Assembly: GCA_963827235.1 (NCBI GenBank)
Contig: CAWHAE010000009.1
Coordinates: forward strand, 1,232,239 to 1,296,238
Reading direction: 5' to 3'
DNA length: 64,000 nt
From: an uncultured bacterium
Lineage (GTDB): Bacteria > Chloroflexota > UBA5177 > JANWHV01
In this document: piece after piece, positions 22,032 through 57,637 of the stretch
How positions within the stretch are numbered: the first letter of the stretch is position 1
Layout of the letters: the number at the start of each line of letters is the position of its first letter
Program-made: the position numbers and the translations under genes
Notes under the pieces: generated by a model
What the model saw: the letters and a program-made list of their open reading frames with translations, nothing else
Told to the model about the DNA's origin: nothing
The model's database searches: none

Positions 22032-23060
22032 GTGTTGCTGATGCCGCTACGAATCGGAGTAATCGGGACAGGGCTGGCGTTTCGAGAGCTCCACCTTCCC
22101 TGCGTGGCGGAGCTCAGGGAAAAGCTGCGTATCGCGGCAGTGGCGAATAGCACGCCTGCTTCGGCAGCGGCAGGGGCAGGGGCCGTCGCGGAGGCCACCG
22201 GCGTGCTTCCCGACGCGTGCGAGAGCGTCGAGCAGCTTCTGGACCGGCCCGACATCGGCGTTGTCCTGATAGCGGTGCCGATTCACCTCACTGCTGGCTA
22301 CGTGCGGCAGGCATTGCTGCATGGAAAGGCGGTCTTTACCGAGAAACCGCTCGCGGATGACCTGGCCGACGCACACAGCCTGATTGAGCTGGCGCGGCGG
22401 ATGGGCCTGCTGCTCTTCGTGGCGGAGAACTTCCGCTACCAGCGCCAATATCGACAGCTTGGCGTGCTGGCGCGCTCGGGCCTGATCGGGCAACCAGTCC
22501 TGTTTCGCTTGAACGACCTGCACTTCACCTCGCCGCAATCGAAGTACGCCGGCACTGCGTGGCGGCAGCAAGGCGCACACGCGGGCGGTTATCTGCTCGA
22601 CGGCGGACCCCACACCATGGCCGGTGTGCGCTCGGTGGTGACCAGCCGGGTCACCGCGGTACACGGGATGACGGCGTCGTTCCACCCGGAGTTTCTGGCT
22701 CAGCAGCACGACACGCTGCTGTTGCACCTGACCTTCGAAGACGGCATGATCGGCGACGTGGGCTTGGGCTACGGCGCCGCGGATCCTGAAGGGCGCCGGC
22801 CGAAGATCTACGGACCCCAGGGCACGCTGATGATGTTGCGAGATCGCATCGAGCTCTGGACGCCTGGCTCGGCGGAGCCGGCGCAGCAATTCCCGCTGGA
22901 CCTCAACGGCCCCGGCTTCAGAGAGGAGTGGCTTGATTTCTGCGGCGCGGCCGTCGAGCACAAACCCCTGGCCGGCACGCCGGAGGACGCCGTTGCGGAT
23001 CTGGAGATCATACTGGCCGGCATAGAATCGGCCCGCACGGGTGAGGTGGTGCATCTCTAG
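22032..23060 (+). CDS. Gfo/Idh/MocA family sugar oxidoreductase
   Basis: RIGVIGTG, AVPIHL, VFTEKPLA, VAENFRY, WR..GGYLLDGGPH. Confidence 0.93.
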   Translation: MLLMPLRIGVIGTGLAFRELHLPCVAELREKLRIAAVANSTPASAAAGAGAVAEATGVLPDACESVEQLLDRPDIGVVLIAVPIHLTAGYVRQALLHGKAVFTEKPLADDLADAHSLIELARRMGLLLFVAENFRYQRQYRQLGVLARSGLIGQPVLFRLNDLHFTSPQSKYAGTAWRQQGAHAGGYLLDGGPHTMAGVRSVVTSRVTAVHGMTASFHPEFLAQQHDTLLLHLTFEDGMIGDVGLGYGAADPEGRRPKIYGPQGTLMMLRDRIELWTPGSAEPAQQFPLDLNGPGFREEWLDFCGAAVEHKPLAGTPEDAVADLEIILAGIESARTGEVVHL

Positions 23061-23072
23061 GAGGGCAGGAGG

Positions 23073-24968
23073 CTGGATACCTGGGTCATAGGGGTCGATC
23101 TCGGCGGCACGAAGACTGAAGTCGCGCTCGTGGATCCACGGAACAGGATCGCGGGCCGCCTGCGCATGGCCACGAACCCTTCGGAGGGTGCCCACAGCAT
23201 CGTCGAGCGGATTGCCCGGTGCGTCGAGGGCCTGACCGGCCTCTTGCCCATGGACGAGCATATCGCCGCGCTCGGCATCTGCTGTCCCGGTCCCGTGGAT
23301 CAGGAGAGCGGCAACCTGTGTGATCCGCCCAACCTGGCCGGCCTGCACTATGCGCCGCTCCGTCAGCTGCTCGCGACACGCCTGCAGCTGCCCGTTAGCC
23401 TCGAGCACGACGCGAGAGCGGCAGCGCTGGGCGAATTCTACTACGGTTCCGGACGCGGCGAGCTGAGCATGGTCTATGTCGTGGTCGGTACCGGCGTGGG
23501 CGCGGCAATCATCGTCGACGGCAAGCTGTTCCGCGGGCCTTACAACTCCGCTGGTGAGATCGGCCACGTGGCGCTGGATCGGGACGGCGACATCTGCTCA
23601 TGCGGCAACCGGGGCTGCGTGGAGACGTTTCTCAGCGGCCCCTGGCTGGCTCGCCGATTCGCGCGCGCGGCGAACGGCCACGTCACCGATCCCGGCGCGG
23701 CGGCGATCACCGGCGAGGCCGTGGTGGAGCTCGCCGGACGGGGAGACGCCTTGGCACGGCGCGTCATGGACGAGGCCGGCGCGGCACTGGGCACCGCCGT
23801 GGCAACCATGTCGATGGTGCTCAGCGTCGATCTCTATGTGATTGGCGGCAGCGTGGCGAAGGCGGGCGATCTGCTTCTCGAGCCGGCGCGGCGCGAAGTC
23901 TCCCGGCACTGCTTCCGATCCGTAAGCTGCGAGATTGGCATCGTGCCGGCTGAGCTCGGCGACGACGGCCCCATTCTTGGCTGCGCGTGGCTGGCGCGTC
24001 AGCTACGGCATGGGCACGGCGCTCACGGCGGCGGTAGCATGCCGAGACGGCTGACGCACTCCGAACAGACCCGGCTCGAACAGGTTGAAGGGATGGTATT
24101 CGACATCCAGCGTTTCTCGCTGCACGACGGTGCGGGACTGCGCACCAACGTGTTCTTCAAAGGCTGCGCGATGCGCTGTCCGTGGTGCGCCAACCCCGAA
24201 TCGCAGCATCGCGAGCCGGAGCTGTGGTATTCGGCGCAGCGGTGTATCGACTGCGGCCAATTCTCGCCTGCCTGCCGAGACTGCAAAGGACGGAACGGAG
24301 CAGCGGTGGGGCTCACCGGAATGCCTGACCGGGTGGCGAGGTGCCCGACCGGCGCGCTCCGGGTGGTCGGGGAGCGCCGGACCGCGGCGGATATCCTGGC
24401 CGAGGTGCTGCGCGACGTGCCTTTCTACGAAGGCGGTGGCGGCATGACGTTGACCGGAGGCGAGCCGGCATTCCAGCCGCGGCTGGCAGAGGCGCTGCTC
24501 CGCCTTGCCAGGCATCATCAGATCGCGACGGCGGTCGAGACGAGCGGGCACACGCGCTGGCGCGTGGTGGAGCGCCTGCTGCCGTACGTGGACGAAGTAC
24601 TGTTCGACCTGAAGCACGTGGATGGCGCGATACATCGGGCAGCCACCGGTGTCGATACCGAGCTGATACTTGCCAATCTGCACCGGTTGGCGACTCTGCA
24701 CGCGCCACTGACCGTGCGAGTGCCGCTGATTCCCGGCTTCAACACCGACGAAACGAGCCTGAGCGCAATCGCGGACTGCGTGCGAGCCCTGGATGGACCG
24801 CCGAGACCCGTGCACCTGCTACCCTACCACACGCTGGGTCGGGCGAAATACGGTGCCCTCAATCGGCAGTATCCATGGGAAGGGCACGATCGCCTGACGG
24901 ATACGCAAATCGCCGCATGCCGGGCGGTATTCGACTCGTGCGGCCTCTCCGTGAGCGTCGGCGGCTGA
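23073..24968 (+). CDS. Fusion: ROK-family sugar kinase + glycyl-radical enzyme activating protein (radical SAM)
   Basis: Conserved WVIGVDLGGTK lies upstream of the ORF-track start, implying a CTG start at 23073 (AGGAGG 8 nt upstream). ROK motifs HDARAAALGE, GTGVG, GEIGH, CSCGNRGCVE; then without a stop FDIQRFSLHDGAGLRT..KGCAMRCPWCANPES (CxxxCxxC), TLTGGEP, FDLKH, RVPLIPG, LLPYH. Confidence 0.9.
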   Translation: MDTWVIGVDLGGTKTEVALVDPRNRIAGRLRMATNPSEGAHSIVERIARCVEGLTGLLPMDEHIAALGICCPGPVDQESGNLCDPPNLAGLHYAPLRQLLATRLQLPVSLEHDARAAALGEFYYGSGRGELSMVYVVVGTGVGAAIIVDGKLFRGPYNSAGEIGHVALDRDGDICSCGNRGCVETFLSGPWLARRFARAANGHVTDPGAAAITGEAVVELAGRGDALARRVMDEAGAALGTAVATMSMVLSVDLYVIGGSVAKAGDLLLEPARREVSRHCFRSVSCEIGIVPAELGDDGPILGCAWLARQLRHGHGAHGGGSMPRRLTHSEQTRLEQVEGMVFDIQRFSLHDGAGLRTNVFFKGCAMRCPWCANPESQHREPELWYSAQRCIDCGQFSPACRDCKGRNGAAVGLTGMPDRVARCPTGALRVVGERRTAADILAEVLRDVPFYEGGGGMTLTGGEPAFQPRLAEALLRLARHHQIATAVETSGHTRWRVVERLLPYVDEVLFDLKHVDGAIHRAATGVDTELILANLHRLATLHAPLTVRVPLIPGFNTDETSLSAIADCVRALDGPPRPVHLLPYHTLGRAKYGALNRQYPWEGHDRLTDTQIAACRAVFDSCGLSVSVGG

Positions 24969-24983
24969 GATGGGAGGTGCAGT

Positions 24984-27431
24984 GTGTCCGTGCTTGTAGG
25001 CGAGCTGGGCATTCCGTATTTGCGCCAACACCCGGAGGCCGCCTTTCCCGACGATTCGCAGCTGGCCGGCGTGGCGTCCGAGCGCTGCGCCCGCCTGAAG
25101 ACGCGGCTCTTCGCGGGCGAGCGCGAGATCGACTGTGAGCGCGCGCGCCACACCACCGAAGCCTACCGTGCCACCGAAGGTGAAGCCATGCCCATCCGCC
25201 GCGCCAAGATGCTGCTGCATCTCGTCCAGCGGTTGAGCATCGCCATACATCCCGACGAGCTGATCGTGGGCAATCGTTCGCTCAAGCCGCGCATGGGCGT
25301 GATCGCGCCGGAGGGCGCGGTCGACTGGGTCGACCGGGAGCTCGACATCCTGCCGGCGCGACCCCAAGATCGCTTTGCCGTTCGGCCCGAGCAGGTGCGC
25401 GAGCTGCGCGAGCAGATCTTCCCGTATTGGCGCGGCCGGACGCTGGAAGACATGGTGGCTGGGCGTGTGCCGGATGACGTCCGGGCGGCGGTAGAGGCCA
25501 AGGCCTTCAGTCTGAACCAGACGGACCACGCGCAGGGGCATATCCTGCCCGACGTTGCCGGCTGGCTGCGTCTCGGCGTGGGTGGCCTGCGCGCGCGGGT
25601 ACAGGCGTGCCGGCAGCAACAGGGGGCGCGGCCGGCGGAGCAACAGACCTTCTACGAGGCCGCGGACATCGCCCTGGACGCGGCTGCCGTGTTGATGCGG
25701 CGCTACGGGGAGCTTGCCCGGCAGGAAGCACGGTCGAGCACCTCACCGGCCCGCGAGCAGGAGTTGTCGCGGATCGCCGAGCACTGCGAGCGGCTCAGCG
25801 AGCACCCGGCGCGGAGCTTCCGGGAGGCGCTGCAGGCCGTCTGGTTCCTCTTCGTGCTGCTGCAGATCGAGTCCAACGCCAGCAGCTTCTCACCAGGCCG
25901 CTTCGATCAGTACATGCTGCCGTACCTGGAGGCAGACCTGCAGGCAGGCACGCTGTCGCTGGCCGAGGCGCAGGAGCTGCTGGAGTGCCTCTGGCTCAAG
26001 TTCAACGAAATCGTCTTGCTCCGCAGCAGCGCCAGCGCCCGGTACTTCGCCGGCTTCCCGATCGGGTTCAACGTTATCCTGGGCGGCCAGCTGCCCGGAG
26101 GGGTCGACGCCACGAACTTTCTCAGCTACATGTGCCTGCGGGCGCAGTCCGACCTCGGTTTAACCCAGCCCAACCTATCCGTTCGTGTGTACGATAAGAG
26201 CCCACAGGCGTTCCTGCTCGCGGCGGCCCGCGTGATCGGCAAGGGGAGCGGCATGCCGCAGGTCTTCAACGACGACGTGATCGTTCCCGGGCAGATCAAT
26301 CGCGGCATCGCACCCGACGATGCCGTGAACTACGCGGTCGTGGGCTGCGTGGAGCTCTCGACACCCGGCAAGGCGCTCGGCTGGAGCGATGCCTCCATGT
26401 TCAATCTGACCCGCGTGCTGGAACTGACGCTGTTCGGCGGCAAGGATCCGCGGAGCGGGATCCAGGCCGGCCTGCCCACGCCGCCCCTCGACGAAATGGG
26501 CTCGATGGACGACGTGGAGGAGGCATACGACCGCCAGCTCGTCCGCTTCGTGGACCTGATGGTAGAGGGCTGCAACGTCGTGGACCGGCTGCACGCGGAG
26601 ATACTACCGTCGCCGTTCCTGTCCCTGCTGATCGAGGACTGCATCGGGCGTGGCCTGGACGTGACGGCCGGCGGGGCTACCTACAACTTCAGCGGGGTGC
26701 AGGGAGTGCAGATTGCCAATGTGGCCGACAGTCTCGCCGCCGTTCGAGCAGCGGTGTTCGAGCAGAAGTGGCTGACGGGCTCCGAGCTGCTCACCACGCT
26801 GCGGCGCAACTTCCAGGATGACGAGGTGCTGCGCCAGCGCCTGATCAACCGCGTGCCGAAGTACGGGAACGACGACGATCGAGTGGACCGGTTGGCGCGG
26901 AAGTGGGCGCGGCGCTACTGTGGCCTGGTCGAGCAGCACCCGAACGTGCGCGGGGGCATGTATCAGCCGGGCTTCTACACCGTCTCCGCGCACGTGCCCA
27001 TGGGCGCCAACGTGGGCGCAATGCCGGACGGCCGCCGGTCCGGCGAGCCGCTGGCCGACGGCGGCATCTCGCCCATGACCGGCCGCGATGAGAAGGGGCC
27101 TACGGCCGTGCTGCGGTCGGTCGGCAGCATGGACCTGGCGCTGGCCTCCAACGGCACGCTGCTGAACATGAAGTTCTCGCCGCAGTTCTTCGATGGAGAG
27201 CACGCCACGGCGCAATTCGCGGCGCTGCTGCGTGGCTTCTGCCGCCTGCGCATTCCGCACGTGCAATTCAACGTCGTCTCGGCCACCACACTGCGTGCAG
27301 CCCAGGCGAGCCCTGCCGAGTATCGATCGCTGGTCGTGCGGGTGGCCGGGTACAGCGCGTACTTCACCGAGCTGGACAGGGACCTGCAAGACGAGATCAT
27401 CCGCCGGACCGAATTCGGCCGGCAGATGTGA
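24984..27431 (+). CDS. pflD: Glycyl radical enzyme, PflD-like (not pyruvate formate-lyase)
   Basis: GGAGG RBS; single-Cys loop VVGCVEL (about 26343-26354); Gly loop VVRVAGYSAYF (about 27339-27356); blocks RPQDRF, NQTD.AQGH, ESNASS, RS..SARYFAGFP, YNFSGVQG, YTVSAHVP match E. coli PflD as I recall it. Confidence 0.9.
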   Translation: MSVLVGELGIPYLRQHPEAAFPDDSQLAGVASERCARLKTRLFAGEREIDCERARHTTEAYRATEGEAMPIRRAKMLLHLVQRLSIAIHPDELIVGNRSLKPRMGVIAPEGAVDWVDRELDILPARPQDRFAVRPEQVRELREQIFPYWRGRTLEDMVAGRVPDDVRAAVEAKAFSLNQTDHAQGHILPDVAGWLRLGVGGLRARVQACRQQQGARPAEQQTFYEAADIALDAAAVLMRRYGELARQEARSSTSPAREQELSRIAEHCERLSEHPARSFREALQAVWFLFVLLQIESNASSFSPGRFDQYMLPYLEADLQAGTLSLAEAQELLECLWLKFNEIVLLRSSASARYFAGFPIGFNVILGGQLPGGVDATNFLSYMCLRAQSDLGLTQPNLSVRVYDKSPQAFLLAAARVIGKGSGMPQVFNDDVIVPGQINRGIAPDDAVNYAVVGCVELSTPGKALGWSDASMFNLTRVLELTLFGGKDPRSGIQAGLPTPPLDEMGSMDDVEEAYDRQLVRFVDLMVEGCNVVDRLHAEILPSPFLSLLIEDCIGRGLDVTAGGATYNFSGVQGVQIANVADSLAAVRAAVFEQKWLTGSELLTTLRRNFQDDEVLRQRLINRVPKYGNDDDRVDRLARKWARRYCGLVEQHPNVRGGMYQPGFYTVSAHVPMGANVGAMPDGRRSGEPLADGGISPMTGRDEKGPTAVLRSVGSMDLALASNGTLLNMKFSPQFFDGEHATAQFAALLRGFCRLRIPHVQFNVVSATTLRAAQASPAEYRSLVVRVAGYSAYFTELDRDLQDEIIRRTEFGRQM

Positions 27432-41955: not shown

Positions 41956-42028
41956 CAGCGCATTCCTGGCCGGAACACTCCCCTTTGCCGCGCTGCAGCC
42001 TGATAGAGCTTGGTCCTGTCAGTTCGCC

Positions 42029-43165
42029 TCACGCTCGTTCAAGGTCCGCAAGCAGGGCAGTCGCCACTCGGTCCGCATCGTGATAACGCTCCACGAACGC
42101 TCGGGCTCTTACGGCGAGGGCAGTCCTCAGCTCAGGCTCCAGGATGGCACGTCGCAGGACATCGTAGATCGTGGTTGGATCTGCATTCAACAAGGGTAGG
42201 TCGTCGTAGGGCTCGTGGGTCCGCCGGCATTCCTCACTGACATACGTGACGACACACTTCTCTAGAGCCATAGCCTCGATGGCCAGCAGACCATACCAGC
42301 CGTAGAGCAACTGATCGACGACGATGTCCGCCCTCTCCATCGCTCGGCGGACCTCGGCATGCGGCTTGCGCTGGAGGCAGACGTAGTCAAACTCATAGCC
42401 TTCATCACGCAGTCTCTGCACAGCCGCTTCAACATGCACCGTGCCCTTCAGCGCAGAATTACTGGGCGCGTGTACCACGACAGGGAGCGGGTTGGCGCAG
42501 CGCCTTGGCGGCCATTTGGCCAGGTCAATCGGCAGCCACAGAAAGCGATACCTGCGAAGGTACTGCGCGTACTCGGGCATGGCATAGACGACATTGGCGA
42601 ATTGGGCTGCCCTTCGCGCGCGTCGCTCCTTGTCGCGCGCAACGCAAGGTAGCGAGCACGCTGAGCAGTAGGTGAACGGTCGATGCAATGGCAGAACGGC
42701 TGCCCGAGCGCGGATGTCGCAGCCGTTGAAAATCACCGCGACGCGTTTGTTGAGCATGCGGAGCAGCGGGAGATCGAGGTTTAGGGGCAGGAGCGTCTCT
42801 CCATGGACGAATACAAAAGTATCGTAGACAATTAGCGCGCGAAGAGCGCTGAGAAGCCGCACAGGCGCGTGCTCGAACCTCCAGAGGCCCTGTAGACCGG
42901 TGCTGTCCACCTGGCGGGGAAAAAGGGCGGCACGAACTGCGTTGGCCCGCTTAAGCACTTGGCCTAGCATACCCGGGTGTACACATCTAGCTGCTGCGGC
43001 GCTGCTCGAGATCTCGAACGCATGCTCTACCCAAGTCAAGGAGTCGACGCGAACCCCAAGGCGCCGGAGCGAGCGAAAGAGCGCAATATTGATAGTGCCG
43101 ATCTCGCACATGCCGATAAGGACGCGGCGACACGGGTGCTCTCGTCTCCGAAACATCTGCCACAT
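42029..43165 (-). CDS. GT-B (GT4-like) glycosyltransferase
   Basis: FNGCDIR, VVHAPSNSALKGT, ADIVVDQLLYGWYGLLAIEAMAL. Confidence 0.85.
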   Translation of the reverse strand: MWQMFRRREHPCRRVLIGMCEIGTINIALFRSLRRLGVRVDSLTWVEHAFEISSSAAAARCVHPGMLGQVLKRANAVRAALFPRQVDSTGLQGLWRFEHAPVRLLSALRALIVYDTFVFVHGETLLPLNLDLPLLRMLNKRVAVIFNGCDIRARAAVLPLHRPFTYCSACSLPCVARDKERRARRAAQFANVVYAMPEYAQYLRRYRFLWLPIDLAKWPPRRCANPLPVVVHAPSNSALKGTVHVEAAVQRLRDEGYEFDYVCLQRKPHAEVRRAMERADIVVDQLLYGWYGLLAIEAMALEKCVVTYVSEECRRTHEPYDDLPLLNADPTTIYDVLRRAILEPELRTALAVRARAFVERYHDADRVATALLADLERA

Positions 43166-43185
43166 GGGTGCTTCCCCGAGCCGGC

Positions 43186-44706
43186 TTAACGGCGCACTAG
43201 CGAAGTTTGCGACGCGCTATGCATATGCGGACTATTGCGGCATCCGACCCTCGACACCGCACGACGAAGAAGCGAAAGACCGGTCAATATGACGTGTGCC
43301 CCTTCTGGTACCAGTGCTGTTTGCCGCGCAACGTACTTCCACCAGACTGGCGATGAGGCAAGCGGTCGGCACCGCAGTGCCGCGAAGACCGCTGAGAACG
43401 GAAGCCACCTTCTTCTTGCCTTGAGCGAGCAAAGCCATGAGGCGAGCCGGGCACTGCGCGACGATTCTGGCCTCGCGACGCACGTTGGTGTTTCCACAGT
43501 GGCTTCCACCTCAGTCGTCCTGTGGGACAACAGGTCGCTGCCGGATTCGGTCGCTTGCGCCACTCGGCAACGCGGGTCCAACTGGCGATAGTATTCCTCG
43601 TAGCGGCGTATCATTCGAACGCCAGCGCCAGTAAGCGCAGCGGTCGCCTGAACAGCAACATCTGCGACTGATACGGCCCTATAGGCAGGCGAGCCACTGC
43701 ACCCCGTGAATTCCGATATCGCTTCCTGCCACATCGTGCTAAACGCTGAATCTGGATATGTGCCTGCTACCTCCCTCGCCCAGAGTCTGAGCATACGGCT
43801 GAGATCTCGGGATAGGGTTGCATCAGGCACACTCAAGATCCACTCGACGACACGTCGTAGGAGGGCAGGGTGCGGCCCAAGGCCATAAACCGCGGAAGCC
43901 GGATCAGCGGCGACTGAAAGAGCCTTGCACAGCGCCTGGTGAGCCAACGCTGGCTCTCTCAGGTTGACGCTAGGAAGGAGGTCCTCCAGACGATACGAAT
44001 TGAGAAGTGCAATCGACGCTCTTCCGCTGTCGAATTGGCCCAGGGACGGGAAGGTGGCGGATCCTTGCGCCGCGTGAAGACGAGTGATACAGGTGGAGTC
44101 TGGAATGGCCGCCGGCATCGTGACAGCCATCAACCGCAACCACATGTCATAGTCTTGGGCGTGGGGCAGGGACGAGTCAAAAACGCCGACCTTCCTGAAC
44201 AACTGCCTATCGACGCACACAGAGTTCCCAGCAATGACGTTGCGGTGCAGCATGTCCAGAACCAGCCAACGCGTGTCGTTGAGGCGCAGTCCGGGCACCA
44301 AAGTCGACCGACCGCTCGCGTATAGTAGGTCAAAACCGGTGACGAAGAACCCCTTCTCGGGATGAGCATGTATGGCGTTTCGGTGTACCGACAGTTTCTG
44401 GCGATGGAACAGGTCGTCTGAGCTGAGCCAACATATCCACTGGCCCGTCGCGTGAGCGAGCGCATTGTTAAGGGCGGTGGCGACACCACCGTTCGGTTGG
44501 TGCAAGACCTTGAACCGCTTGTCGCGCCTGCTGTACGAGTCGAGGATGTCGGCAGTGCCGTCTGAAGACCCATCGTCGACTACCACCGCCTCCCAATCGG
44601 CGTCCGTCTGCGCGACAAGCGAGTCCAGCGCTTGGCCCAGGTACTGAGCCTGATTATAGGTGGGAACGAGCACGCTGAACATGGGAACCTTCGGCATAGC
44701 AGTCAC
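43186..44706 (-). CDS. GT2 glycosyltransferase with C-terminal extension
   Basis: FSVLVPTYN, VVDDGSSD, NGGVATALN, WLSSDD, AQDYDMWLR. Confidence 0.9.
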   Translation of the reverse strand: MTAMPKVPMFSVLVPTYNQAQYLGQALDSLVAQTDADWEAVVVDDGSSDGTADILDSYSRRDKRFKVLHQPNGGVATALNNALAHATGQWICWLSSDDLFHRQKLSVHRNAIHAHPEKGFFVTGFDLLYASGRSTLVPGLRLNDTRWLVLDMLHRNVIAGNSVCVDRQLFRKVGVFDSSLPHAQDYDMWLRLMAVTMPAAIPDSTCITRLHAAQGSATFPSLGQFDSGRASIALLNSYRLEDLLPSVNLREPALAHQALCKALSVAADPASAVYGLGPHPALLRRVVEWILSVPDATLSRDLSRMLRLWAREVAGTYPDSAFSTMWQEAISEFTGCSGSPAYRAVSVADVAVQATAALTGAGVRMIRRYEEYYRQLDPRCRVAQATESGSDLLSHRTTEVEATVETPTCVARPESSRSARLASWLCSLKARRRWLPFSAVFAALRCRPLASSPVWWKYVARQTALVPEGAHVILTGLSLLRRAVSRVGCRNSPHMHSASQTSLVRR

Positions 44707-44736
44707 CGACCAAGGCTTAGCGGTAGAGTCGTTGGG

Positions 44737-45822
44737 TTAGAAGGCATGGTGGTATCCGAGCACGATCCGTGCCACTGTCTGGGAGACGTTGCTTGCGAGG
44801 TACTCCGAAGGCGGCGTCCAATTCGGAGGGCGCGCCAGCACCGTCCGCACGCATCGTAGAATCGATTCGAGCTCGACGCCGCTGAGCACGTTGCTGCCCG
44901 CGTCCATGGTCTCCGGTCGTTCCGTCGTATCACGAATGGTAACGTTCGGGACCCTGAGGATGCAGCATTCTTCCTGGACTGTGCCGCTGTCGCTCACCAC
45001 GCACAGGGCGTTCTCTTCCAGTTTCACGAAATCGACGAAGCCGAGCGGCTCGACAAATCTGATGTCTTCCTGCGGAACGGCGAGGCCAAACTGGTCCATC
45101 CGCTTTCGTGTCCTAGGGTGCAGGCTGCAAAGCACCGGAGCGCCATGCTCGCGACAGAGACCGGCAAGAGCGCTGAGCAACGACGACAGTCTGCCCCGAT
45201 CGTCGACGTTTTCGGCACGGTGCATGGTCACGAGGAAGTAGGACCCGCTCGAGACAGCATACGTCCTCAGAGCCCTCGAGCCGTCTATCTCAGTGCGATT
45301 GGCCTGCATGACCTCGTAGATCGGATTTCCGGTCACATGGATGCGCTGCTCCTCGATGCCCTCGCGCACGAGGTTCTCCTTGCTACGCTGGGTATACGGC
45401 ATGAGTATGTCGCTGCAGTGATCGATGACGCGTCGATTCACTTCTTCCGGCACGCGATCGTCATGGCAGCGGTTACCCGCTTCCATGTGGTAGACCGGGA
45501 TGCCCATGCGCTTCGCCATAAGCGCGGCAAGGCTGCTGTTCGTGTCACCGAGCACGAGGAACCTGTCCGGCCGCTCGAGAGCCAGTATTCTCTCGGACTC
45601 GCGCATAATGGTGGCGACCTGTTCACCAAAGGTACCGACTGCGCCCATCCGGTAGTCCGGTTCCCTGACGCGCAGCTCGCGAAAGAATATGTCGCTCAGG
45701 TTCGGATCGTGGTTCTGGCCCGTATGTATCAGCCGCTGGTCACAGAGGCCGTCGAGGAACTCAATGACGCGGCTCAGCCTGATGATCTCCGGGCGCGTGC
45801 CAAGAATCGTGACCACTTTCAT
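44737..45822 (-). CDS. wecB: UDP-N-acetylhexosamine 2-epimerase (WecB/FnlC-like)
   Basis: ATG 45822 in ATGA overlap; GTRPEIIRLS, HTGQN, LGDTNS, HMEAGNRC..VPEEVNR, SDSGTVQEE, TERPE. Confidence 0.93.
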   Translation of the reverse strand: MKVVTILGTRPEIIRLSRVIEFLDGLCDQRLIHTGQNHDPNLSDIFFRELRVREPDYRMGAVGTFGEQVATIMRESERILALERPDRFLVLGDTNSSLAALMAKRMGIPVYHMEAGNRCHDDRVPEEVNRRVIDHCSDILMPYTQRSKENLVREGIEEQRIHVTGNPIYEVMQANRTEIDGSRALRTYAVSSGSYFLVTMHRAENVDDRGRLSSLLSALAGLCREHGAPVLCSLHPRTRKRMDQFGLAVPQEDIRFVEPLGFVDFVKLEENALCVVSDSGTVQEECCILRVPNVTIRDTTERPETMDAGSNVLSGVELESILRCVRTVLARPPNWTPPSEYLASNVSQTVARIVLGYHHAF

Positions 45823-46763
45823 GAGGTGGACCTCTTGCTGCAGCCGGCGGCAGGTTGCGGATACAGCGCAAGCTCGGCAACCATTTCGGCCACGCTCGGC
45901 GTGGCACGATAGCCAGCCGCGTGCCACAACGAGTCGTTGAGCTCGTGGTTGCAGGTCGCCAGCGTTCGATTCACAGCTTTGTCGGCCTCAACCACTTCGA
46001 CGGTGACATCTCGGCGCTCAAACGCGCCAGCGAACGCTTGCAGCAGCTCTGCCTTGGACACCACACCGCCTGGAATCACATGTTGGAGGTGCGGCAGCGC
46101 GATATCTTGGGAGATAATTGCCCCGCAAAGCTTCGCGAAGTGCAGTGTCGTCAGCCCATTCCAGAGGTGATTCGCAAATCCACGAACCTGCGACCCGACG
46201 GGCTGGCTGAGAAACCACGCGAGAAGGGAGCGCCCGGGGTAGCGCTCTGGCCCCACTATCGAGCAACGGAGATGGTGCACATTGGACATCCTGGCCTCGC
46301 CCAAGCTCTTCGTCTTGCCGTAGACGTCAAGCGCGTCGTGCACGTCGAGCTCCGAGTATAGGCCCTTGCTGCCGGAGTAAACGCAGTCCGTTGCGATCTG
46401 AAGCACGCGGGCTCCCGCCGCCGCGGCTCTCATTCCCAGCTGGAACGGGAACTGCGAGTTGACGGCTATCGCACTGGCCACTTCTGCGGCGTCCTCATCG
46501 TGAATGAGCGGCTTGATCACCCCGATGGCATTCACGATCCAGTCCGCATCGTCAATTGGGTCCCACGTTCCCTCGTCGCGCGCGTCAAGCAAACTCCACT
46601 CGGCGCGTCGAATCCGCTGCCGGCAGTCTTCGAGGATCGATGGGTTTCGAACCGTGCCGCGTACGGATACGGTCTCCTGTTCCGCAAGATAGGCGGCGAC
46701 CATTGAGCCGAGCATACCCGACGCACCTAGCACGAGAACACGTTTCAGTGCCACCTGCTTCAC
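45819..46763 (-). CDS. RmlD-like NDP-4-keto-6-deoxysugar reductase
   Basis: LGASGMLG, VNAIGVIK, IATDCVYSG, YGKTKSLGE, WNGLTT. Confidence 0.9.
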   Translation of the reverse strand: MKQVALKRVLVLGASGMLGSMVAAYLAEQETVSVRGTVRNPSILEDCRQRIRRAEWSLLDARDEGTWDPIDDADWIVNAIGVIKPLIHDEDAAEVASAIAVNSQFPFQLGMRAAAAGARVLQIATDCVYSGSKGLYSELDVHDALDVYGKTKSLGEARMSNVHHLRCSIVGPERYPGRSLLAWFLSQPVGSQVRGFANHLWNGLTTLHFAKLCGAIISQDIALPHLQHVIPGGVVSKAELLQAFAGAFERRDVTVEVVEADKAVNRTLATCNHELNDSLWHAAGYRATPSVAEMVAELALYPQPAAGCSKRSTS

Positions 46764-47209
46764 CGTTCCTCGACTGTCCAGATGTCCCAGTACCGGGCAG
46801 GAAACCTGATGTCGTCGCCTCGAGACTGATCAAGAGTACTTGTGGAGAAGAAGAGCACTTGTGTCGCGCTGGTCAGCGACATGAAGCCGTTGGCGTACCC
46901 GGGCGGGACATAGAGCACGGCCGGCTTGCCTGCGGCGAGCACGAAGCGCTGGACCTCCAGGCTCGGTGACGGCTCCGACCAGTCGTCGAGCTGGACAGCG
47001 CCGACGAGCGCTGCGCCTGACGCCACGAACACGTACTTAGCTTCGTGTCGATGGCCGTGCCAGGCCCGCACGAGCCCGGCGACATGGTTCTCTACGCAGT
47101 AGAAGCGCTTCACGCCGGCAAAATCGAAGTCGTTGACGAAGCGAAGTGTGCCCCGGTCGTCGACGGCAAGGCCACCCGCGATGAGGGTAGGCACCTGGGG
47201 AGCGCTCAT
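46760..47209 (-). CDS. Cupin NDP-sugar epimerase/isomerase
   Basis: VDDRG..F, VKRFY, RAWHGHRHEAK, YVPPGYANGF. Confidence 0.88.
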   Translation of the reverse strand: MSAPQVPTLIAGGLAVDDRGTLRFVNDFDFAGVKRFYCVENHVAGLVRAWHGHRHEAKYVFVASGAALVGAVQLDDWSEPSPSLEVQRFVLAAGKPAVLYVPPGYANGFMSLTSATQVLFFSTSTLDQSRGDDIRFPARYWDIWTVEER

Positions 47210-48168
47210 TGCTCGTCCCGCCGTCGCCAGTGAAGCTGATTGCCGGGAACTGCGAGAAAGGAAGCATTCGCGTAGCGGGGGTTGTCCACATCCTTGAGCC
47301 TGTGCGAGACAAGCAAATCTTTGATCTCCTCGATACCGGAGTCGATAGAGTACATGGGCTTGAATCCCAGCACGCTCTCGGCCTTTTCGCCGGTGACGCG
47401 GTAATTCCGCGAGTCCTGGAACGTCATGGGTGAAATCTCGATCTCGGTGTCTGGGAAGTGGTTGCGTATCTGGTACGCAAGGTCGACTATGCGAACGTTC
47501 TGCTTCTGAAGGTTGAAGATCCCGGTGTGAGCCGTGTCCACATTGCCCACTACAGCGCGTGCTGCATCCCGCACATGCAAGAGCGGGCGGAACTGATCGC
47601 CGCCGAACACGCTGAGCTTGCCCTGGCGATAGGCCCTAACGGTGAGGATGTTGACAACGAGGTCGAGCCGAATGCGCGAGAACAGATCGCCGACACCAAA
47701 GATCGTGCCAAGTCGAAAGACGATCGCGTTCTTGCCGGTAAGATGCTTCTCGGCGGCAAGCTTCGTTGCCGCGTAAACGGAGAGAGGGTTCGCCGGCGAC
47801 TCCTCGTCGAGCACGGCGTCCTGGGCCCCATAGACAGAACACGTGGACATGAACACGATCCGGCCGTCAAAGTGCTCTGCCAGCCATCTGAGGGGCTCCT
47901 GGTTTACTTCGACGGAGAGCTCAGGGTTGAGCGCGCACGCGCCGTCGCCGACCAACGCTGCCAACCAGACTACAGCGTCTGCCCAGGATAGGTGCTTCGC
48001 CAACCGCTGCTGATCACGGATGTCCCCGTAGGCAAAGTCCACGGGCTTTCGATACGACTCCTCATAGAGCAAGCAGTCGTATACCCGCACTGTGTGGCTG
48101 GCCTGCATGAGCAAGTCAACCGTAACGCCACCGATGTAGCCGGCGCCGCCGACAACGAGCACGTTCAT
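47206..48168 (-). CDS. NAD-dependent NDP-sugar epimerase/dehydratase (extended SDR)
   Basis: VVGGAGYIG, LAALVGDGAC, STCSVYG, YAATK, RIRLDLVVN, RPLLHVRD. Confidence 0.92.
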   Translation of the reverse strand: MNVLVVGGAGYIGGVTVDLLMQASHTVRVYDCLLYEESYRKPVDFAYGDIRDQQRLAKHLSWADAVVWLAALVGDGACALNPELSVEVNQEPLRWLAEHFDGRIVFMSTCSVYGAQDAVLDEESPANPLSVYAATKLAAEKHLTGKNAIVFRLGTIFGVGDLFSRIRLDLVVNILTVRAYRQGKLSVFGGDQFRPLLHVRDAARAVVGNVDTAHTGIFNLQKQNVRIVDLAYQIRNHFPDTEIEISPMTFQDSRNYRVTGEKAESVLGFKPMYSIDSGIEEIKDLLVSHRLKDVDNPRYANASFLAVPGNQLHWRRRDEQ

Positions 48169-48415
48169 GGTCTCCTACTTCCACCATGTGATACACACGC
48201 TGTCTGACCAACTGGGGCCACGGATGTTGGCTCCGCCATCGAACGGCCCAGTAGCAATGGCTGTAGGACACGCAGCACGTGTTCGCCACAAATAGCCAGT
48301 GTGGAACGGTCGTAGGAATTGTCCGCGTCAGGAACCTGACCAACAAGCCGTAAGCATCGACCGCCTATAGCGCGTCGCCAGCGACTGCGAGAGAAGTATC
48401 CCATGAAACCGCCCC

Positions 48416-49468
48416 CTAGACCCTGCGGTTGTGGATGTGACATAAGCCGAGAAACCGCCGGAGCGCACTCCGCGGAGCTCCAAGCACCTGGACGCAGATC
48501 GCCGTCCAGAATCGTTTATGGCGCCAAAAGCGGGCGACATAGTGTCGCAACGACCAGTATTCGCGGCCGGCAATATTGGGCGACCTTAGTACCTTGATTG
48601 CTGTGGGTACGCCGATCGCGAGCAAGTAGTCCTGGCACTCCCTCACTATGGGACGCTCCACTCCCATCTCAGCATATAGATCCAGCGCTTCCTGAAGTCT
48701 GACCAGCACAATCATGGGCTGGTAATCCCACCATTCCCTTGCACCATCCACAATCGTGATTACCGGTGTCCCAATATGATAGGCCTTTCGCCCAACGAAC
48801 CCCCTTGCGAACACAACTATGTGGGGATAGGTCAGCTCGAGTGAAGAAAAGGCGCTGCCACTCGACACGTCAATGCCGTGGGCCGACTTGCACCATATGG
48901 TTCGACGGAACACCGCGCGCTGCATACCCATGAAAAGGTTCCCACGACCAGGTGTTATCAGATGCTCCCACCGATCAACTGCGTAAGATCGAGTGTCCTG
49001 CGATTCCAAGGCGAGATCTGCCGGCAATCGTGACGCAACGACCGGACCTTGATACCTATCGAGCGTCCCTATCGGGACATGCATCCCGTTTACGCAGACA
49101 AAGTCGATGTCCGTGGAGTTCGCCAGCACGTTGAGCACACGTTCTAGTCCATCATCGCGGACAAAGTCGTCATCACCAATCAGCCAGCAGTACTCGCCGA
49201 TCGCATATTCGCCTACGAGCTTCAGCATATTTCGAACGGCACCGATATTCTCGGTATTCCGATAGGATCGAATTGGGCACTGGGCCTGAGCCCGCTTGAT
49301 GATGTCGGGGGTGCGGTCGGGTGAATGGTTGTCCGACACGATAAGCTCCACCGTGTCCGAGAACCTCGAGATCTGGGGTGCGAGCGACAGCAATGCCGAT
49401 TCAAGCAGCCTGGAGCGGTTGTAGGTTGGAATACATATCGATAACAGAGGCACAGCGGCAGATTCCAT
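48416..49468 (-). CDS. GT2 glycosyltransferase (dideoxyhexosyltransferase/RfbV-like)
   Basis: ATG 49468; LLSICIPTYNR, VSDNHSPD, NIGAVRN, GEYCWLIGDDD. Confidence 0.88.
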   Translation of the reverse strand: MESAAVPLLSICIPTYNRSRLLESALLSLAPQISRFSDTVELIVSDNHSPDRTPDIIKRAQAQCPIRSYRNTENIGAVRNMLKLVGEYAIGEYCWLIGDDDFVRDDGLERVLNVLANSTDIDFVCVNGMHVPIGTLDRYQGPVVASRLPADLALESQDTRSYAVDRWEHLITPGRGNLFMGMQRAVFRRTIWCKSAHGIDVSSGSAFSSLELTYPHIVVFARGFVGRKAYHIGTPVITIVDGAREWWDYQPMIVLVRLQEALDLYAEMGVERPIVRECQDYLLAIGVPTAIKVLRSPNIAGREYWSLRHYVARFWRHKRFWTAICVQVLGAPRSALRRFLGLCHIHNRRV

Positions 49469-49488
49469 CGAAGCCCTTTCGTTGTCTG

Positions 49489-50460
49489 CTAACCGCCATG
49501 CCGAACAGAGCTGGTGCACGCGTCGGCACGACTCGACGAGGCGAGAGCGCGCTCTAGAGTCCAGGCGATGCGCTGGGCTGTGAGGGCATGCTTTGCGAGC
49601 AGCTGCCCCTGACTGCCCGCCGCTGCCTCCTGGACAAGCCTGTCGGTGTCCAGCGTGAGATAGCGCACGCTGGCCGACGACACCCCGGCCAAACATCGGG
49701 CCACGGCATCGGCAAGCCCGCCTACGAGGCCGTGCTCTTCTACGACGCAGACGAGGCCGCAGTCACTCGCAGCCGACATTATGGCAGCAGTATCAATAGG
49801 CTTCACCGTTGGCAGGCTAAGGACGCGCGTCGTGACTCCATGCTGCTTGAGCATGTCCGCAGCTTGTACAACAGTGGATAGCATGCCGCCAGTACTCAAC
49901 AACGCTGCATCATTACCATGGCGCACGAGTATCGCCTTCCCTAGCTGAAACCGTGGTTCAGCGGTGTAAACAGGCGAAGCCCCAGCATTACCCAGCCTCA
50001 GATAACACGGTCCGACATGCCCAGCGATCTCTCTGGTTGCCAATCGCGTCTCGACACGATCACCGGGAGCAACTACAACCATATTTGGCATCGCGCGCAT
50101 GACGGCCAAATCCTCAACCGCGTGGTGGCTGTAACCTGCGGAGCCATACGAAAGACCCCCACCCACTGCCACGATTTTCACGTTCGCGCTGTGGTAGCAG
50201 ATATCGTCGCGGATTTGCTCAAGGCATCGCATAACTGGAAAATTGGCGATTGAGTAGATGAAGACGACGTTGCCGGACAGCGCCAGTCCTGCTGCGACCC
50301 CGACCATGTTCTGTTCGGCGACTCCCGCGTTCACGAATCTTGCCGGGAATCTGGCGGCGAATACTTCCAGGACTGAGTATCCGAGGTCGCCGCAAAGCAG
50401 CCAGATGCGTTCGTCCTCCTCGGCCAACTCGCAGAGCGTCTCTATGAAGGCTGTTCTCAC
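49489..50460 (-). CDS. Transketolase-like protein, C-terminal (pyrimidine-binding) subunit
   Basis: MRTAF, GDLGYSV, NAGVAEQNMVGVAAGLA, RCLEQIR, SHHAVED, YLRLG, VEEH. Confidence 0.93.
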   Translation of the reverse strand: MRTAFIETLCELAEEDERIWLLCGDLGYSVLEVFAARFPARFVNAGVAEQNMVGVAAGLALSGNVVFIYSIANFPVMRCLEQIRDDICYHSANVKIVAVGGGLSYGSAGYSHHAVEDLAVMRAMPNMVVVAPGDRVETRLATREIAGHVGPCYLRLGNAGASPVYTAEPRFQLGKAILVRHGNDAALLSTGGMLSTVVQAADMLKQHGVTTRVLSLPTVKPIDTAAIMSAASDCGLVCVVEEHGLVGGLADAVARCLAGVSSASVRYLTLDTDRLVQEAAAGSQGQLLAKHALTAQRIAWTLERALASSSRADACTSSVRHGG

Positions 50461-51314
50461 AGACAGATCTCCAGCTCCTCGAGAGCCAGCCTGAACTGCT
50501 CGTCGTTCGGTGATGAATAGTGCCAGGACAGCTGGTCTTCCATGAAGCTGACGCCCTTCCCTTTGGTGGTGTGGGCGATCATAACGCTGGGGCGACCCTT
50601 CTCCAATGGTAGACCAGTAAGCGCTGATTCAATTTGCTCAAGATTATGCCCATCAATCTCGCGTACAGCCCAGCCGAACGCCCGCCACTTCTCAGGTAAT
50701 GGCGCTAGCGAGAGTACTTCGTCCACGCTGCCGAAGCCCTGAATCTTGTTGTAGTCGACGATCGCTGTGAGGTTGTCCAACCCATGATGGGGCGCAAACA
50801 GTATGGCTTCCCAGTTGGAACCTTCGTCAAGCTCGCCATCGCTGAGCATCACGAAAACTCGATACTGCTCCCGCCTGCGCTTGGCTGCGAGGGCCATGCC
50901 ACAGCCGATCGGCAACCCGTGCCCGAGCGAGCCGGTTGATACCTCAACGCCGGGCACGTGATGGCTCGCGTGTCCAATCAGGGGCGAGCCATCCTGACAG
51001 TAGTGATCGAGCCATTGTGTTGGGAAGAACCCAGTCTCAGCCAATACGGCATACAGGATGGCTGCGGCGTGGCCTTTGCTAAGTATGAAGCGGTCGCGCC
51101 CTGCCCAAGTTGGCTCAGCGGGATCGATTCGCAAGATCGCGCCATACAGTACTGCCATCAGGTCGGCGGCGGACAAGCAGCTAGCAATATGTGATGCTCG
51201 CGCCGCGTGTACCATGCGCAGCGCTTCAAGGCGAATCCTGAGAGCAAGCTCGGCACAGCTCAGTCGCCCCGCTGTTACCTGCCGATATTCTGAGGCGCTC
51301 ATGAGCGTCACCAC
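50457..51314 (-). CDS. Transketolase-like protein, N-terminal (TPP-binding) subunit
   Basis: DRFILSKGHA, STGSLGHGL, SDGELDEGSNWEA, DYNKIQ, KGKGVSFME..WHY. Confidence 0.93.
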   Translation of the reverse strand: MVTLMSASEYRQVTAGRLSCAELALRIRLEALRMVHAARASHIASCLSAADLMAVLYGAILRIDPAEPTWAGRDRFILSKGHAAAILYAVLAETGFFPTQWLDHYCQDGSPLIGHASHHVPGVEVSTGSLGHGLPIGCGMALAAKRRREQYRVFVMLSDGELDEGSNWEAILFAPHHGLDNLTAIVDYNKIQGFGSVDEVLSLAPLPEKWRAFGWAVREIDGHNLEQIESALTGLPLEKGRPSVMIAHTTKGKGVSFMEDQLSWHYSSPNDEQFRLALEELEICL

Positions 51315-51342
51315 ATCTCCGAGTGCATGAGCCGATGTCCGT

Positions 51343-53196
51343 TCAACCTAGTATGCTGGTGATGCTGTTGCACACATGGTTCACCTGTGCTCGCGTCAGG
51401 CATACGCCGCTCGGAAGGTTGATGGCTCGGTCGCCGATCCACTTCGCCCGCGGCTGGGTAGACTGGATGCGTTGCCAGATTGGGTACTGGCTGATCGCGG
51501 GAAACACCGGACGAGTATCAACATTCATAGCGCGCAACTGTGCGCGCAGGTCTTCTCGACTCATGAGGACTTGCTCGCCTAGGAGAATGCTCGTCATCCA
51601 GTAGATGCTTCGGGCCCACGGCATCTCGTGGTTGAGCGCCACTCCCGGAATGTCGTGCAGACCTTCCGCATACCAGGAGAAGATGCGCCGCTTAGCCTCG
51701 ACAAGTTGATCCACGCGCTCAAGCTGGCCCAGCCCAACGGCTGCCTGGAGATTGGACATCTTGTACTTCCAGCCCTTCTGGTTGATCCAGAAGGTCCGGT
51801 TGGGGTCACGGCCCTGGTCCCAAAGTAGGAGCAGCTGCTCGTAGAGCGAATCGTCGTTGGTGACAAGCATGCCGCCTTCACCTGTTACTAGCAGTTTGGC
51901 GCCTTGGAAGCTGAACGCGGCAAAGCTGCCAAAGGTCCCAACCTTCTGGCCTCTGAATTCTGCACCAATTGCGGGCGCGGCATCCTCAACAACTCGGAGA
52001 TCGTGTCGTGTCGCGAACTCCACTATCTTGTCCATCTCCGCCGGATGGCCATACAGGTGAACTGGGATGATCGCTTTAGTCCGCGGTGTCACCGCCGATT
52101 CCAGTTGCTTTGGATCGAGACACCAGCTCTGCGGCTGTACATCGACAAATACTGGCGTCGCACCAACGTAGGAGACTGCATTTGCCGTAGCGACCCAAGT
52201 TATGTCCGGCACAAGGACTTCATCACCGGGACCGATGCCAAGTGTGAGCAGGGCCAAGTGCAACGCTCCTGTGCAACTCGATGTGCTGAGTGCGTGCCTC
52301 ACACCCAGATAGTCGGCAAAAGTCTGCTCAAAGCGCTTGATATACCCGCTCCACTGGCGATTCCAGCCATAGCGTGCTGCGTCCGTGGCGTAGCTCATCT
52401 CGCGCGCGGAAATCGAGGGGCCCGCAGTAAGAATGACACTGCCGTCATAAGCTGATGGGCCCGCATAATCCATCACGACGAAGACAGCATCGGGAACCTC
52501 TCTGTCGTCCGGCTCGAGCGGCTGATAGAGGACCGTCGCGTCGTGTATATGCTTCCGCAGCGGAATCCGGTTCGTTTCAAGGAATCCCAAGGCAAGGTAG
52601 AAGTCAATGGCCCGCTTGTTGTCGCTGAACACGCGCAGGTAAACGCGGCGCGGGCCTATGACCTCAGACGCCCATTGTAAGAGGGCGCGCATCGCCTGGG
52701 CCATGATGCCTGGGTGGACATGGTGGATACCGCGCACCACGTTGTCAATCTCCATAGCCATATCGTCGTTGAGGGCGTTGGCGAACCCAAGGTGACCAAT
52801 TGCGCGGCCATGTTTGTCGGAGACTAGGAACAGCAGGCGATCATCCACGCCAAGCACCCGAGAGCGGACCCACTCCTTGGTGCCCTCGACAGTGACAGGA
52901 AATCGGCTGGGGTAGGCGAAAGCGTTTTGCTCGCGCCACAAGGCGAGCTGTTGAATCAGTTGCTCATCATCTACGTGCAGGTTACAAAGCGGCAAAAGGT
53001 AACCGTCATAGCCTGAGAGATCAATGCGCCGGGCAAGCAAATCATCGAGCGTTTCTGCCGCTTTGAGAAATGCGAACTCCGCTCGAACAGTCTTGCTGAA
53101 GACTTGAGCACTTCTCGTCTTGTCGCTATCGGTCGGGTATCCGACGTGGACTGCCTCCTTTAGTCCAGAGCCCAAGCCTTGGTCTGGCATTGTCAT
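51343..53196 (-). CDS. Fusion: GNAT N-acyltransferase + DegT/DnrJ (perosamine synthase-like) aminotransferase
   Basis: N-terminal IGHLG..MEIDNVVRG..YLRVFSDNKRAIDFYLALGF; C-terminal SSCTGALHL, VHLYGHP, EDAAP, FSFQGAK..GEGG, YKMSNLQAA, NLPSG. Confidence 0.9.
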   Translation of the reverse strand: MTMPDQGLGSGLKEAVHVGYPTDSDKTRSAQVFSKTVRAEFAFLKAAETLDDLLARRIDLSGYDGYLLPLCNLHVDDEQLIQQLALWREQNAFAYPSRFPVTVEGTKEWVRSRVLGVDDRLLFLVSDKHGRAIGHLGFANALNDDMAMEIDNVVRGIHHVHPGIMAQAMRALLQWASEVIGPRRVYLRVFSDNKRAIDFYLALGFLETNRIPLRKHIHDATVLYQPLEPDDREVPDAVFVVMDYAGPSAYDGSVILTAGPSISAREMSYATDAARYGWNRQWSGYIKRFEQTFADYLGVRHALSTSSCTGALHLALLTLGIGPGDEVLVPDITWVATANAVSYVGATPVFVDVQPQSWCLDPKQLESAVTPRTKAIIPVHLYGHPAEMDKIVEFATRHDLRVVEDAAPAIGAEFRGQKVGTFGSFAAFSFQGAKLLVTGEGGMLVTNDDSLYEQLLLLWDQGRDPNRTFWINQKGWKYKMSNLQAAVGLGQLERVDQLVEAKRRIFSWYAEGLHDIPGVALNHEMPWARSIYWMTSILLGEQVLMSREDLRAQLRAMNVDTRPVFPAISQYPIWQRIQSTQPRAKWIGDRAINLPSGVCLTRAQVNHVCNSITSILG

Positions 53197-53199
53197 GGC

Positions 53200-55516: not shown

Positions 55517-56306
55517 GTCCGTTTGACTCCTTCCACGTCACCCACGGCGCCTCGCCTCGATCCCATAGACTGTTGAGATAGAGGTACTCGCGATACGTAT
55601 CCATCGCGAAGAAGAAGCCCTCGTGACGGTACGCCGCTAGCTCACCATCTCGGGCAAGCTGCTCCAGTGGCGCGCGCTCGAACACGCAGTCAGGCGCGAC
55701 ACTCAGGTAGTCGAACACCTTGCGATGCAGCACGAGGAATCCGGCATTGGCCCAGCCGTCCGCCTGGGGTTTCTCAGAGAAGGCCTGAACGAAACTGGAA
55801 CCGTCAAGCTGCAGCATGCCGAAGCGCGACGTTGGGTGAACGGTCGTCAACGTAGCGAGTCGGCCGTGCTCACGATGGAAGGCTAGCAGTCGTTTGATAT
55901 TCACATCGCTGAGCCCGTCGCCGTAGGTCAGCATGAAGGTGTCGTCGTCTACATAGTGCTGCACGCGCTTGATTCGGGCGCCCGTCATCGTCTCGAGCCC
56001 GGTTTCCGCCAGCGTCACCTTGAAGTTCTGCTCCTGGTGCGCTCCGTGGTATGTGACATGGTTCTGGCAGCCGAGGCAAATGGTGATGTCGTTGTTCATC
56101 GCCTCGTAGTCCAGGAAGTACTGTTTGATCATGTGCCCTCGATAGCCAAGGCAGAGAACGAAATCCGAGAAACCGTAATGCGCATAGTGTTTCATGATGT
56201 GCCAGAGGATCGGCCGTCCACCAATCTCGACCAGCGGCTTTGGACGGTATTCGGTCTCCTCGCGCAGCCTTGTGCCCTGTCCGCCGCAGAGAATGACTAC
56301 CTTCAT
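55470..56306 (-). CDS. rfbF: Glucose-1-phosphate cytidylyltransferase
   Basis: [54 protein letters not shown]. Confidence 0.96.
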
Positions 56307-57634: not shown

Positions 57635-57637
57635 TGG

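Follow-up and report, generated by a model that had tools for sequence, protein, structure and literature searches.

The description of anhydroglycolysis in 2024 presented it as a gut pathway fed by the phosphotransferase system (PTS), in which PTS phosphorylation is the starting step (PMC12441222, PMC13450708). Two glycyl radical enzymes (GREs) serve as points of comparison here: PflD from Escherichia coli and Streptococcus (PDB 8YJO, 8ID0), a 1,5-anhydromannitol-6-phosphate C-O lyase (PMC13450708, PMC12441222), and E. coli YbiW (PDB 8ID7), a 1,5-anhydroglucitol-6-phosphate C-O lyase found with its activase YbiY and FsaA. In rhizobia, the product of anhydrofructose reductase enters an aerobic route instead (PMC12441222). 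The cassette described here lies in a 64,000-nucleotide stretch of an uncultured Chloroflexota genome (assembly GCA_963827235.1, contig CAWHAE010000009.1, positions 1,232,239 to 1,296,238, forward strand), the whole of which is called the window. It comprises genes for a Gfo/Idh/MocA oxidoreductase (Gfo), a ROK sugar kinase fused to a radical SAM activase, and a GRE related to PflD.

We consider it probable that the cassette encodes a PTS-independent anhydroglycolysis, in which a kinase feeds the ring opening of a 1,5-anhydrohexitol-6-phosphate to a 1-deoxy-ketose 6-phosphate. That the GRE opens the ring of some anhydro-alditol phosphate is quite likely, and the chances that this is specifically 1,5-anhydromannitol-6-phosphate are about even. 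The proposal builds on gene content, catalytic motifs, the position of the GRE clade, its linkage to a kinase, the recurrent fusion and the lack of PTS genes; the substrate and product are our reading of these observations. The ROK kinase would add a phosphate to C6 of a 1,5-anhydrohexitol, with 1,5-anhydromannitol as the most likely substrate, and the activase domain would place the radical on Gly789. The Cys455 thiyl would then abstract hydrogen from C2 and Glu457 would deprotonate the C2 hydroxyl, after which the C1-O ring bond would break and the cysteine would give the hydrogen back, producing 1-deoxyfructose 6-phosphate. For this GRE the mechanism is suggested by analogy with the radical C-O lyase mechanism of PflD and YbiW (PMC13450708).

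The glycyl radical enzyme and its clade

The GRE contains the glycine loop RVAGY (G789) and the cysteine loop C455-V-E457, and all the motifs quoted for it in the first-pass annotation, including a single GCVE cysteine, are present in its reading frame. The CXE loop is a feature of eliminase/isomerase-type GREs (PMC13450708), to which the protein also belongs by its TIGR01774 score (867, cutoff 678). Its closest solved relatives are E. coli PflD (8YJO, 776 bits), Streptococcus PflD (8ID0, 674 bits), glycerol dehydratase (647 bits) and YbiW (499 bits), with 48% identity to E. coli PflD and 40% to YbiW. The predicted model (pLDDT 88.5) has 8YJO as its top fold match (TM 0.90). The CXE loop, the ESNASS segment, R347, H186, D469, Y665/V667, RVAGYSA and a dedicated ferredoxin-type activase are common to the window system and E. 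coli PflD/PflC. YbiW, for which the same chemistry and product are proposed, differs in its core segments SGDAH, ESNGHS and YRCTG. Glycyl radical glycerol and propanediol dehydratases, HypD, CutC, sulfonate lyases and pyruvate formate-lyase were considered as identities and rejected, the score of the GRE being far under each family cutoff.

An IQ-TREE analysis of 28 selected rows places the GRE in a 13-row clade (support 100/99) that is sister to five PflD rows (joint branch 100/100); it is thus outside the PflD clade proper, both sides having 100% bootstrap. The same PflD-sister clade is fully supported in a FastTree analysis of 73 rows, and in both trees it is separate from the YbiW and dehydratase-like rows. 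These placements refer to a sampling without Streptococcus PflD (8ID0) in the IQ-TREE set and without HypD, CutC and other characterised GREs in either set. The earlier designation of the enzyme as PflD-like therefore stands as far as nearest neighbour is concerned, by sequence, fold and trees, and fails as a family assignment: besides its sister position, the GRE scores 862 with PRK09983 (PflD family), under the cutoff of 1109, whereas E. coli PflD itself reaches 1725. It most plausibly works like PflD, yet it is not classed as PflD.

The 119 best other matches to the GRE are all 70-75% identical, and the named ones come from Chloroflexota and KSB3; genome loci add Acidobacteriota to the range of the clade. 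The distribution is patchy, the GRE being found in 3 of 401 genomes of the phylum (two candidates scored per genome) and in two of five genomes of the genus. A subclade 59-60% identical to the GRE was observed in the loci L102:404-8337 and L100:470-4846, the former with a DeoC-type aldolase, RpiB, a zinc-dependent alcohol dehydrogenase (Zn-ADH), a ROK protein, an activase and a second GRE. The window genome itself contains two more divergent GRE and activase pairs (L201:1275-4268 on contig C9 and L202:1108-4178 on contig C12), whose GREs are 26-31% identical to that of the window and under all family cutoffs.

Kinase linkage and the phosphotransferase system

Gene neighbourhoods were compared in 49 clade loci (L001-L044, L050, L060-L062 and L065), the other 31 loci collected containing PflD or more distant GREs. 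Genes were counted at identities of at least 45% over at least 40% of the query; many contigs are short and closely related genomes are not independent. A ROK orthologue is present in 31/49 loci (22/31 among loci of at least 15 kb) and an activase in 32/49. Gene order is shuffled among the loci while the ROK linkage persists. PTS genes, searched with FrwC, FrwB and PtsA as queries, were found in 0/49 clade loci. Neither PTS IIC family (PF02378, PF03609) was found in the window genome (7.98 Mb, 95.9% complete, 9% contamination); among the 49 clade genomes, 10 contain PF02378. On this basis the replacement of the PTS by a kinase, which the first-pass annotation had put forward, is well supported: where the E. 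coli PflD locus has the FrwCB/PtsA system with FsaB and GldA, the clade has ROK and ABC genes, Fsa is rare and GldA was not found. The sole PTS enzyme I of the window genome is located with DhaK and DhaL (L200:978-5365, contig C10), a set that could in principle accept hydroxyacetone.

Other genes recurrent in the 49 loci encode a GMC oxidoreductase (19), a levoglucosan-dehydrogenase-like Gfo (18), Zn-ADH (17), a protein similar to ribulose-phosphate 3-epimerase (RPE-like, 16), ABC components (12-15), a SorC/DeoR regulator (13), an HbpS-like protein (12), a second ROK (8) and transaldolase (3). They are frequently arranged in a long cluster with the order SorC, Zn-ADH, RPE-like, Gfo, ABC, GRE, GMC and activase (L030:963-15296 and 15 similar loci). 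The presence of this different Gfo in 18 loci indicates that the pathway often comes with a redox step, so that the reductase logic of the first-pass annotation survives as analogy and not as orthology. In the order of its Zn-ADH, TIM-barrel epimerase-like and Gfo genes the cluster resembles E. coli ycjQRS (Zn-dehydrogenase, keto-sugar epimerase and Gfo dehydrogenase), but the genes are not orthologous (28% and 34% identity over partial lengths, no match for YcjR), and the set is absent from the window genome. No orthologue of the long-cluster SorC, Zn-ADH, RPE-like, Gfo, ABC, GMC or HbpS proteins was found there (best 36% or no match).

GREs of the YbiW side occur in the same loci or genomes as the window-type clade, being present in 7 of the 49 clade genomes, and the Bacillota members L069 and L076 adjoin a GRE 52-53% identical to YbiW, like the E. 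coli pair. One uncharacterised YbiW-side GRE (L009:3608-8613, L011, L060, L044, L102 and L146), 47% identical to YbiW and with the motif RPWDHTRFGIGYP, is accompanied by its own ROK protein without the acidic residue that binds the 1-OH; this ROK is fused to an activase in nine database clusters. The idea that the Zn-ADH/RPE/Gfo/GMC module substitutes for a second, YbiW-side GRE was discarded because the L018 and L026 genomes have both.

Concerning the cleavage of the product, an Fsa with Q59, K85, Y131 and R134, which we take to be the canonical signature, is the immediate neighbour of the cassette in L007 and in L065, which are fusion loci. Fsa requires the fructose configuration, and its position beside the cassette points to a fructose-configured product.

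Cassette structure and the kinase-activase fusion

The cassette is real and intact (Table 1). Its Pfam content is GFO_IDH_MocA, then ROK, Radical_SAM and Fer4_12 in one reading frame, and finally PFL-like and Gly_radical. As the first-pass annotation stated, the genes are co-oriented and tightly packed, with a gap of 15 nt (24969-24983) between the fusion and the GRE and one of 12 nt between Gfo and the fusion, the latter valid only with the CTG start. Gfo has 342 residues counted from GTG and 339 in the database call; its stop codon ends at 23060 and the fusion frame is open from 23061. The CTG at 23073 is located 7 nt behind a GGAGG, agrees with the start positions of relatives and is the only start that includes the kinase ATP motif GVDLGGTK, although the database call begins later (600 aa, P0122). 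From there the fusion frame runs to 24968 with no stop between the ROK and radical SAM domains. A short-read contig, which may come from the same sample, is identical over 22999-23165 (0 differences).

Table 1. Genes and domains of the cassette, in window coordinates.
Feature	Position	Strand	Remarks
Gfo/Idh/MocA oxidoreductase	22032..23060	+	Pfam PF01408/PF22725/PF02894; EKP and GGxxxDxxxH catalytic motifs
ROK sugar-kinase domain of the fusion	23073..24002	+	predicted CTG start; DxGGT, catalytic Asp, ExGH, CxCGxxGCxE
GRE activase (radical SAM) domain, same polypeptide	24039..24968	+	CX3CX2C; Cys-rich ferredoxin-like insert; TIGR02494
Glycyl radical enzyme, 815 aa	24984..27431	+	C455/E457/G789; clade-fixed H182, I360, F362, W467, S468

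The cassette is flanked upstream by a NAD-binding gene of the SDR type and a NUDIX gene and downstream by genes on the opposite strand, so that, as had been pointed out before, no transporter or aldolase gene adjoins it in the window. A scan for promoters and terminators gave results at chance level. Further along the window (42000-58500) there is a minus-strand block of lower GC content (57-61%) with sugar-nucleotide, glycosyltransferase and ABC export-type genes, as judged only from the starts of the reading frames.

The kinase-activase fusion, taken as incidental in the first-pass annotation, is the most distinctive feature of the cassette. The ROK domain has the DxGGT motif, the catalytic Asp, ExGH and the zinc motif, without an N-terminal HTH, and D8, T12, D112, T139, E161, H164 and C174/C176/C181 (P0121 numbering) are invariant in 41 fusions. 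The activase domain reaches 293.8 bits with TIGR02494 (cutoff 174.35) and contains the radical SAM motif CAMRCPWC. Both domains are present in 72 of 103 non-self matches to the fusion protein: 60 of these clusters are full-length and window-type, three are partial and nine have a different ROK family, the one found beside YbiW-side GREs. Judging from the motif classes and from identities of 40-45%, the fusion would have arisen at least twice. Among five loci in which ROK precedes the activase, three are fused and two are not. A sequencing error as the origin of the fusion was ruled out by these three loci and by the 72 other fusion clusters. Minimal cassettes of fusion and GRE are also found in Acidobacteria. 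Two database proteins that combine ROK with a partial GMC C-domain or a partial PFL-like domain (P0223, P0225) are single records and possibly assembly errors.

In most clade members kinase and activase are separate genes, and the linkers between the fused domains range from 26 to 215 residues (median 42). Together with an in-frame loss of most of the kinase in a second genome of the genus (G001), this favours independent domains that benefit from co-expression, and the fusion most simply links the amount of kinase to that of activase. It may also serve gating or channelling. In mammalian cells 1,5-anhydroglucitol-6-phosphate is described as toxic and as an inhibitor of hexokinase (PMC12441222), which would be a conceivable motive for tying its kinase to its disposal.

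No paper on this GRE clade or on the fusion was found in a full-text literature search that did not cover the JACS 2024 paper and its supplement, which may show kinase-linked PflD-like clusters. The activase section of a 2026 review describes a SAM domain and a ferredoxin-like domain only, and automatic protein names at JGI list both domains of the fusion. A metagenome scan with the fusion alignment, in which 9 of 80 loci were examined, caught generic activase patterns.

Substrate, product cleavage and the reductase gene

Several observations, to which the PRK09983 score belongs, weigh against the proposed pathway. Most PflD pocket segments, including ESNASS and F-P-x-G (Gly361), are identical in the clade, apart from five substitutions fixed in 119-120 of 120 homologues: H182 (Lys in PflD), I360 (Thr), F362 (Tyr), W467 (Leu) and S468 (His). 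They may touch the substrate, to judge from their place beside known pocket residues, and since this GRE belongs to a sister group whose core differs at fixed positions, the PflD substrate is not simply transferable to it.

The kinase pocket is also altered. In PsNagK, metal binding falls to D6 and the role of base to D105; N104 and E154 contact the 3-OH, D187 the 1-OH (PMC10031466). The window ROK, mapped by motif and by alignment to GlkA, retains all these residues except N104, which is His111. Among motif matches (duplicates included), 105/122 are of this HD type, and 104/105 of them keep the Glu that binds the 1-OH. Compared with the ROK kinases Streptomyces griseus GlkA (3VGK), PsNagK (7P7I) and AlsK, the window domain shares the metal Asp, the catalytic Asp, the Thr residues, ExGH and the zinc motif; it differs in the His at the 3-OH position and in its C-terminal activase. 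The second ROK family, found beside YbiW-side GREs, keeps the Asn and shows Met in place of the acid that contacts the 1-OH in 15/15 ND-type motifs (duplicates included), which fits sugars lacking an anomeric hydroxyl. The pocket of the window kinase, with His for Asn and Glu kept, is the main hint that its substrate may differ from that of PflD.

As to the genes for product cleavage, canonical Fsa occurs in only 2/49 clade genomes and any Fsa match in 12/49. None that is canonical was found in the window genome, for which the first-pass annotation had proposed a search; of its four TAL_FSA genes, the two that were aligned are non-canonical, and the other two are long and of the transaldolase type. 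GldA was found in 0/49 clade loci and had no match in the window genome. Product cleavage might fall to a transaldolase; in relatives, the RPE-like protein together with Zn-ADH would be another candidate. One Fsa-like protein of the window genome (L180, contig C10, 431880-432548) has Q59 but F131 and P134 (FNGP motif), a type that recurs in 6 of 13 matches from clade genomes.

The substituted Asn, replaced by His in the ROK clade and, in the allose kinase AlsK of E. coli (a single comparator), by Arg, raises the main alternative, namely that the GRE acts on a C3-altered (altro or allo) anhydro-alditol phosphate to give 1-deoxy-psicose 6-phosphate, which the RPE-like protein would convert into the fructose form by 3-epimerisation. 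The RPE-like and GMC oxidoreductase genes of the clade, the levoglucosan-dehydrogenase-like Gfo (284 bits, cutoff 650), RpiB in the metagenome locus L102 and the fixed substitutions of the GRE core agree with it. The RPE-like family is 79% conserved, but at its metal-ligand motifs (HIEV and EAQLQM) it has Gln and Glu at two positions where the canonical ligands are His/Asp. Besides, L007 and L065 share the GRE and ROK signatures and have canonical Fsa, with no RPE-like gene in the locus, and we know of no natural source of altro or allo anhydro-sugars. We hold this alternative to be unlikely. A broader version is likewise unlikely: the widespread Chloroflexota/Acidobacteriota/KSB3 clade would represent a third specificity of radical sugar isomerases, opening a C3-epimeric or new anhydro-sugar phosphate, and the twice-evolved fusion would install the oxygen-sensitive radical only with sugar bound or would hand the phosphorylated sugar directly to the GRE.

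The retained 1-OH Glu, which sets this kinase apart from those beside YbiW-side GREs, is compatible with a quite unlikely explanation in which the GRE eliminates or isomerises another substrate (an open-chain polyol phosphate, an aldose phosphate, or an anhydro-sugar without phosphate, levoglucosan for instance), and in which the kinase either uses sugars whose 1-OH is free or follows the radical step. Glycerol and propanediol dehydratases have fold scores close to that of PflD, which fits with it, and so does the Lys-to-His change at position 182, which would correspond to a residue lining the anion site of C-S lyases. For one of them, IslA, the spacing Arg189/Gln193 is described (PMC13450708). 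Nevertheless, sequence and trees group the GRE with PflD and not with the dehydratases, the dehydratase residues His281 (in ESNGHS) and Tyr339 are replaced as in PflD, and the Fsa and YbiW-type neighbours suit anhydroglycolysis.

The role of Gfo in a PTS-independent anhydroglycolysis is the most tentative part of the proposal. It might be a locally recruited NAD(P)H-dependent enzyme that reduces a keto-sugar such as 1,5-anhydrofructose and so provides the anhydro-alditol, although its identity as an anhydrofructose reductase is doubtful. The alignment shows intact EKP and GGxxxDxxxH motifs; the end of strand 2 (ANST/NRT) has no acidic residue. Such a lack is associated with NADP(H) preference, which hints at the use of NADP(H). 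The best PDB match is 1ZH8 (125 bits), whereas the rhizobial 1,5-anhydro-D-fructose reductases, of the same superfamily, match weakly (2GLX, 55 bits, rank 8; 4KOA, 41 bits, rank 19), so the kinship on which the first-pass annotation had based this role is not close. Gfo relatives are few (53 matches, three at 74-77%, with P0228 and P0229 at 74-75%). The window Gfo was found in 0/49 clade loci and in 2/401 genomes of the phylum, both of the window genus, by which its conservation with the GRE was ruled out; the three-gene synteny, which the first-pass annotation had itself set as a test, is shared only with the same-genus genome G001, whose cassette has a 77% orthologue. In a different class, two of 401 genomes have 34% Gfo relatives in housekeeping surroundings with no GRE. 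Only in this genus is Gfo, an accessory gene, part of the cassette. With 13 GH31 matches in the window genome, an alpha-glucan lyase may be a candidate source of the sugar. Hydrolases of GH31 release 1,5-anhydrofructose as a side product (PMC12441222), and an internal source of this sugar could, speculatively, explain the absent transporter.

The G001 copy (L090:12073-16821, contig C8) also counts against the pathway: about 250 N-terminal kinase residues have been lost in frame, and activase and GRE have a frame break each (decay or long-read error), and within this genus the cassette may therefore be non-essential or in decay. An orphaned, partly functional operon remnant, with its uptake, redox and cleavage genes gone and Gfo as an unrelated hitch-hiker, would also account for the presence of the GRE in two of five genus genomes, the lack of long-cluster orthologues and canonical Fsa in the window genome and the non-standard CTG start. 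We regard this as quite unlikely, since the three reading frames are full-length with intact catalytic motifs, Gfo moved with the block (homology with G001 extends from the Gfo start to the GRE end, with different flanks), and Acidobacteria likewise have minimal cassettes.

If the PTS-independent anhydroglycolysis proposed here is correct, the clade would carry this pathway, or a stereochemical variant of it, to PTS-lacking bacteria of soil, sediment and sludge. Of its features, the recurrent fusion and the altered pockets deserve testing. Radical loading of YbiW and PflD reaches only 0.02-0.06 per monomer. Activation of GREs is a bottleneck of the field, and the natural fusion offers a system in which to ask whether activation is coupled to substrate supply.

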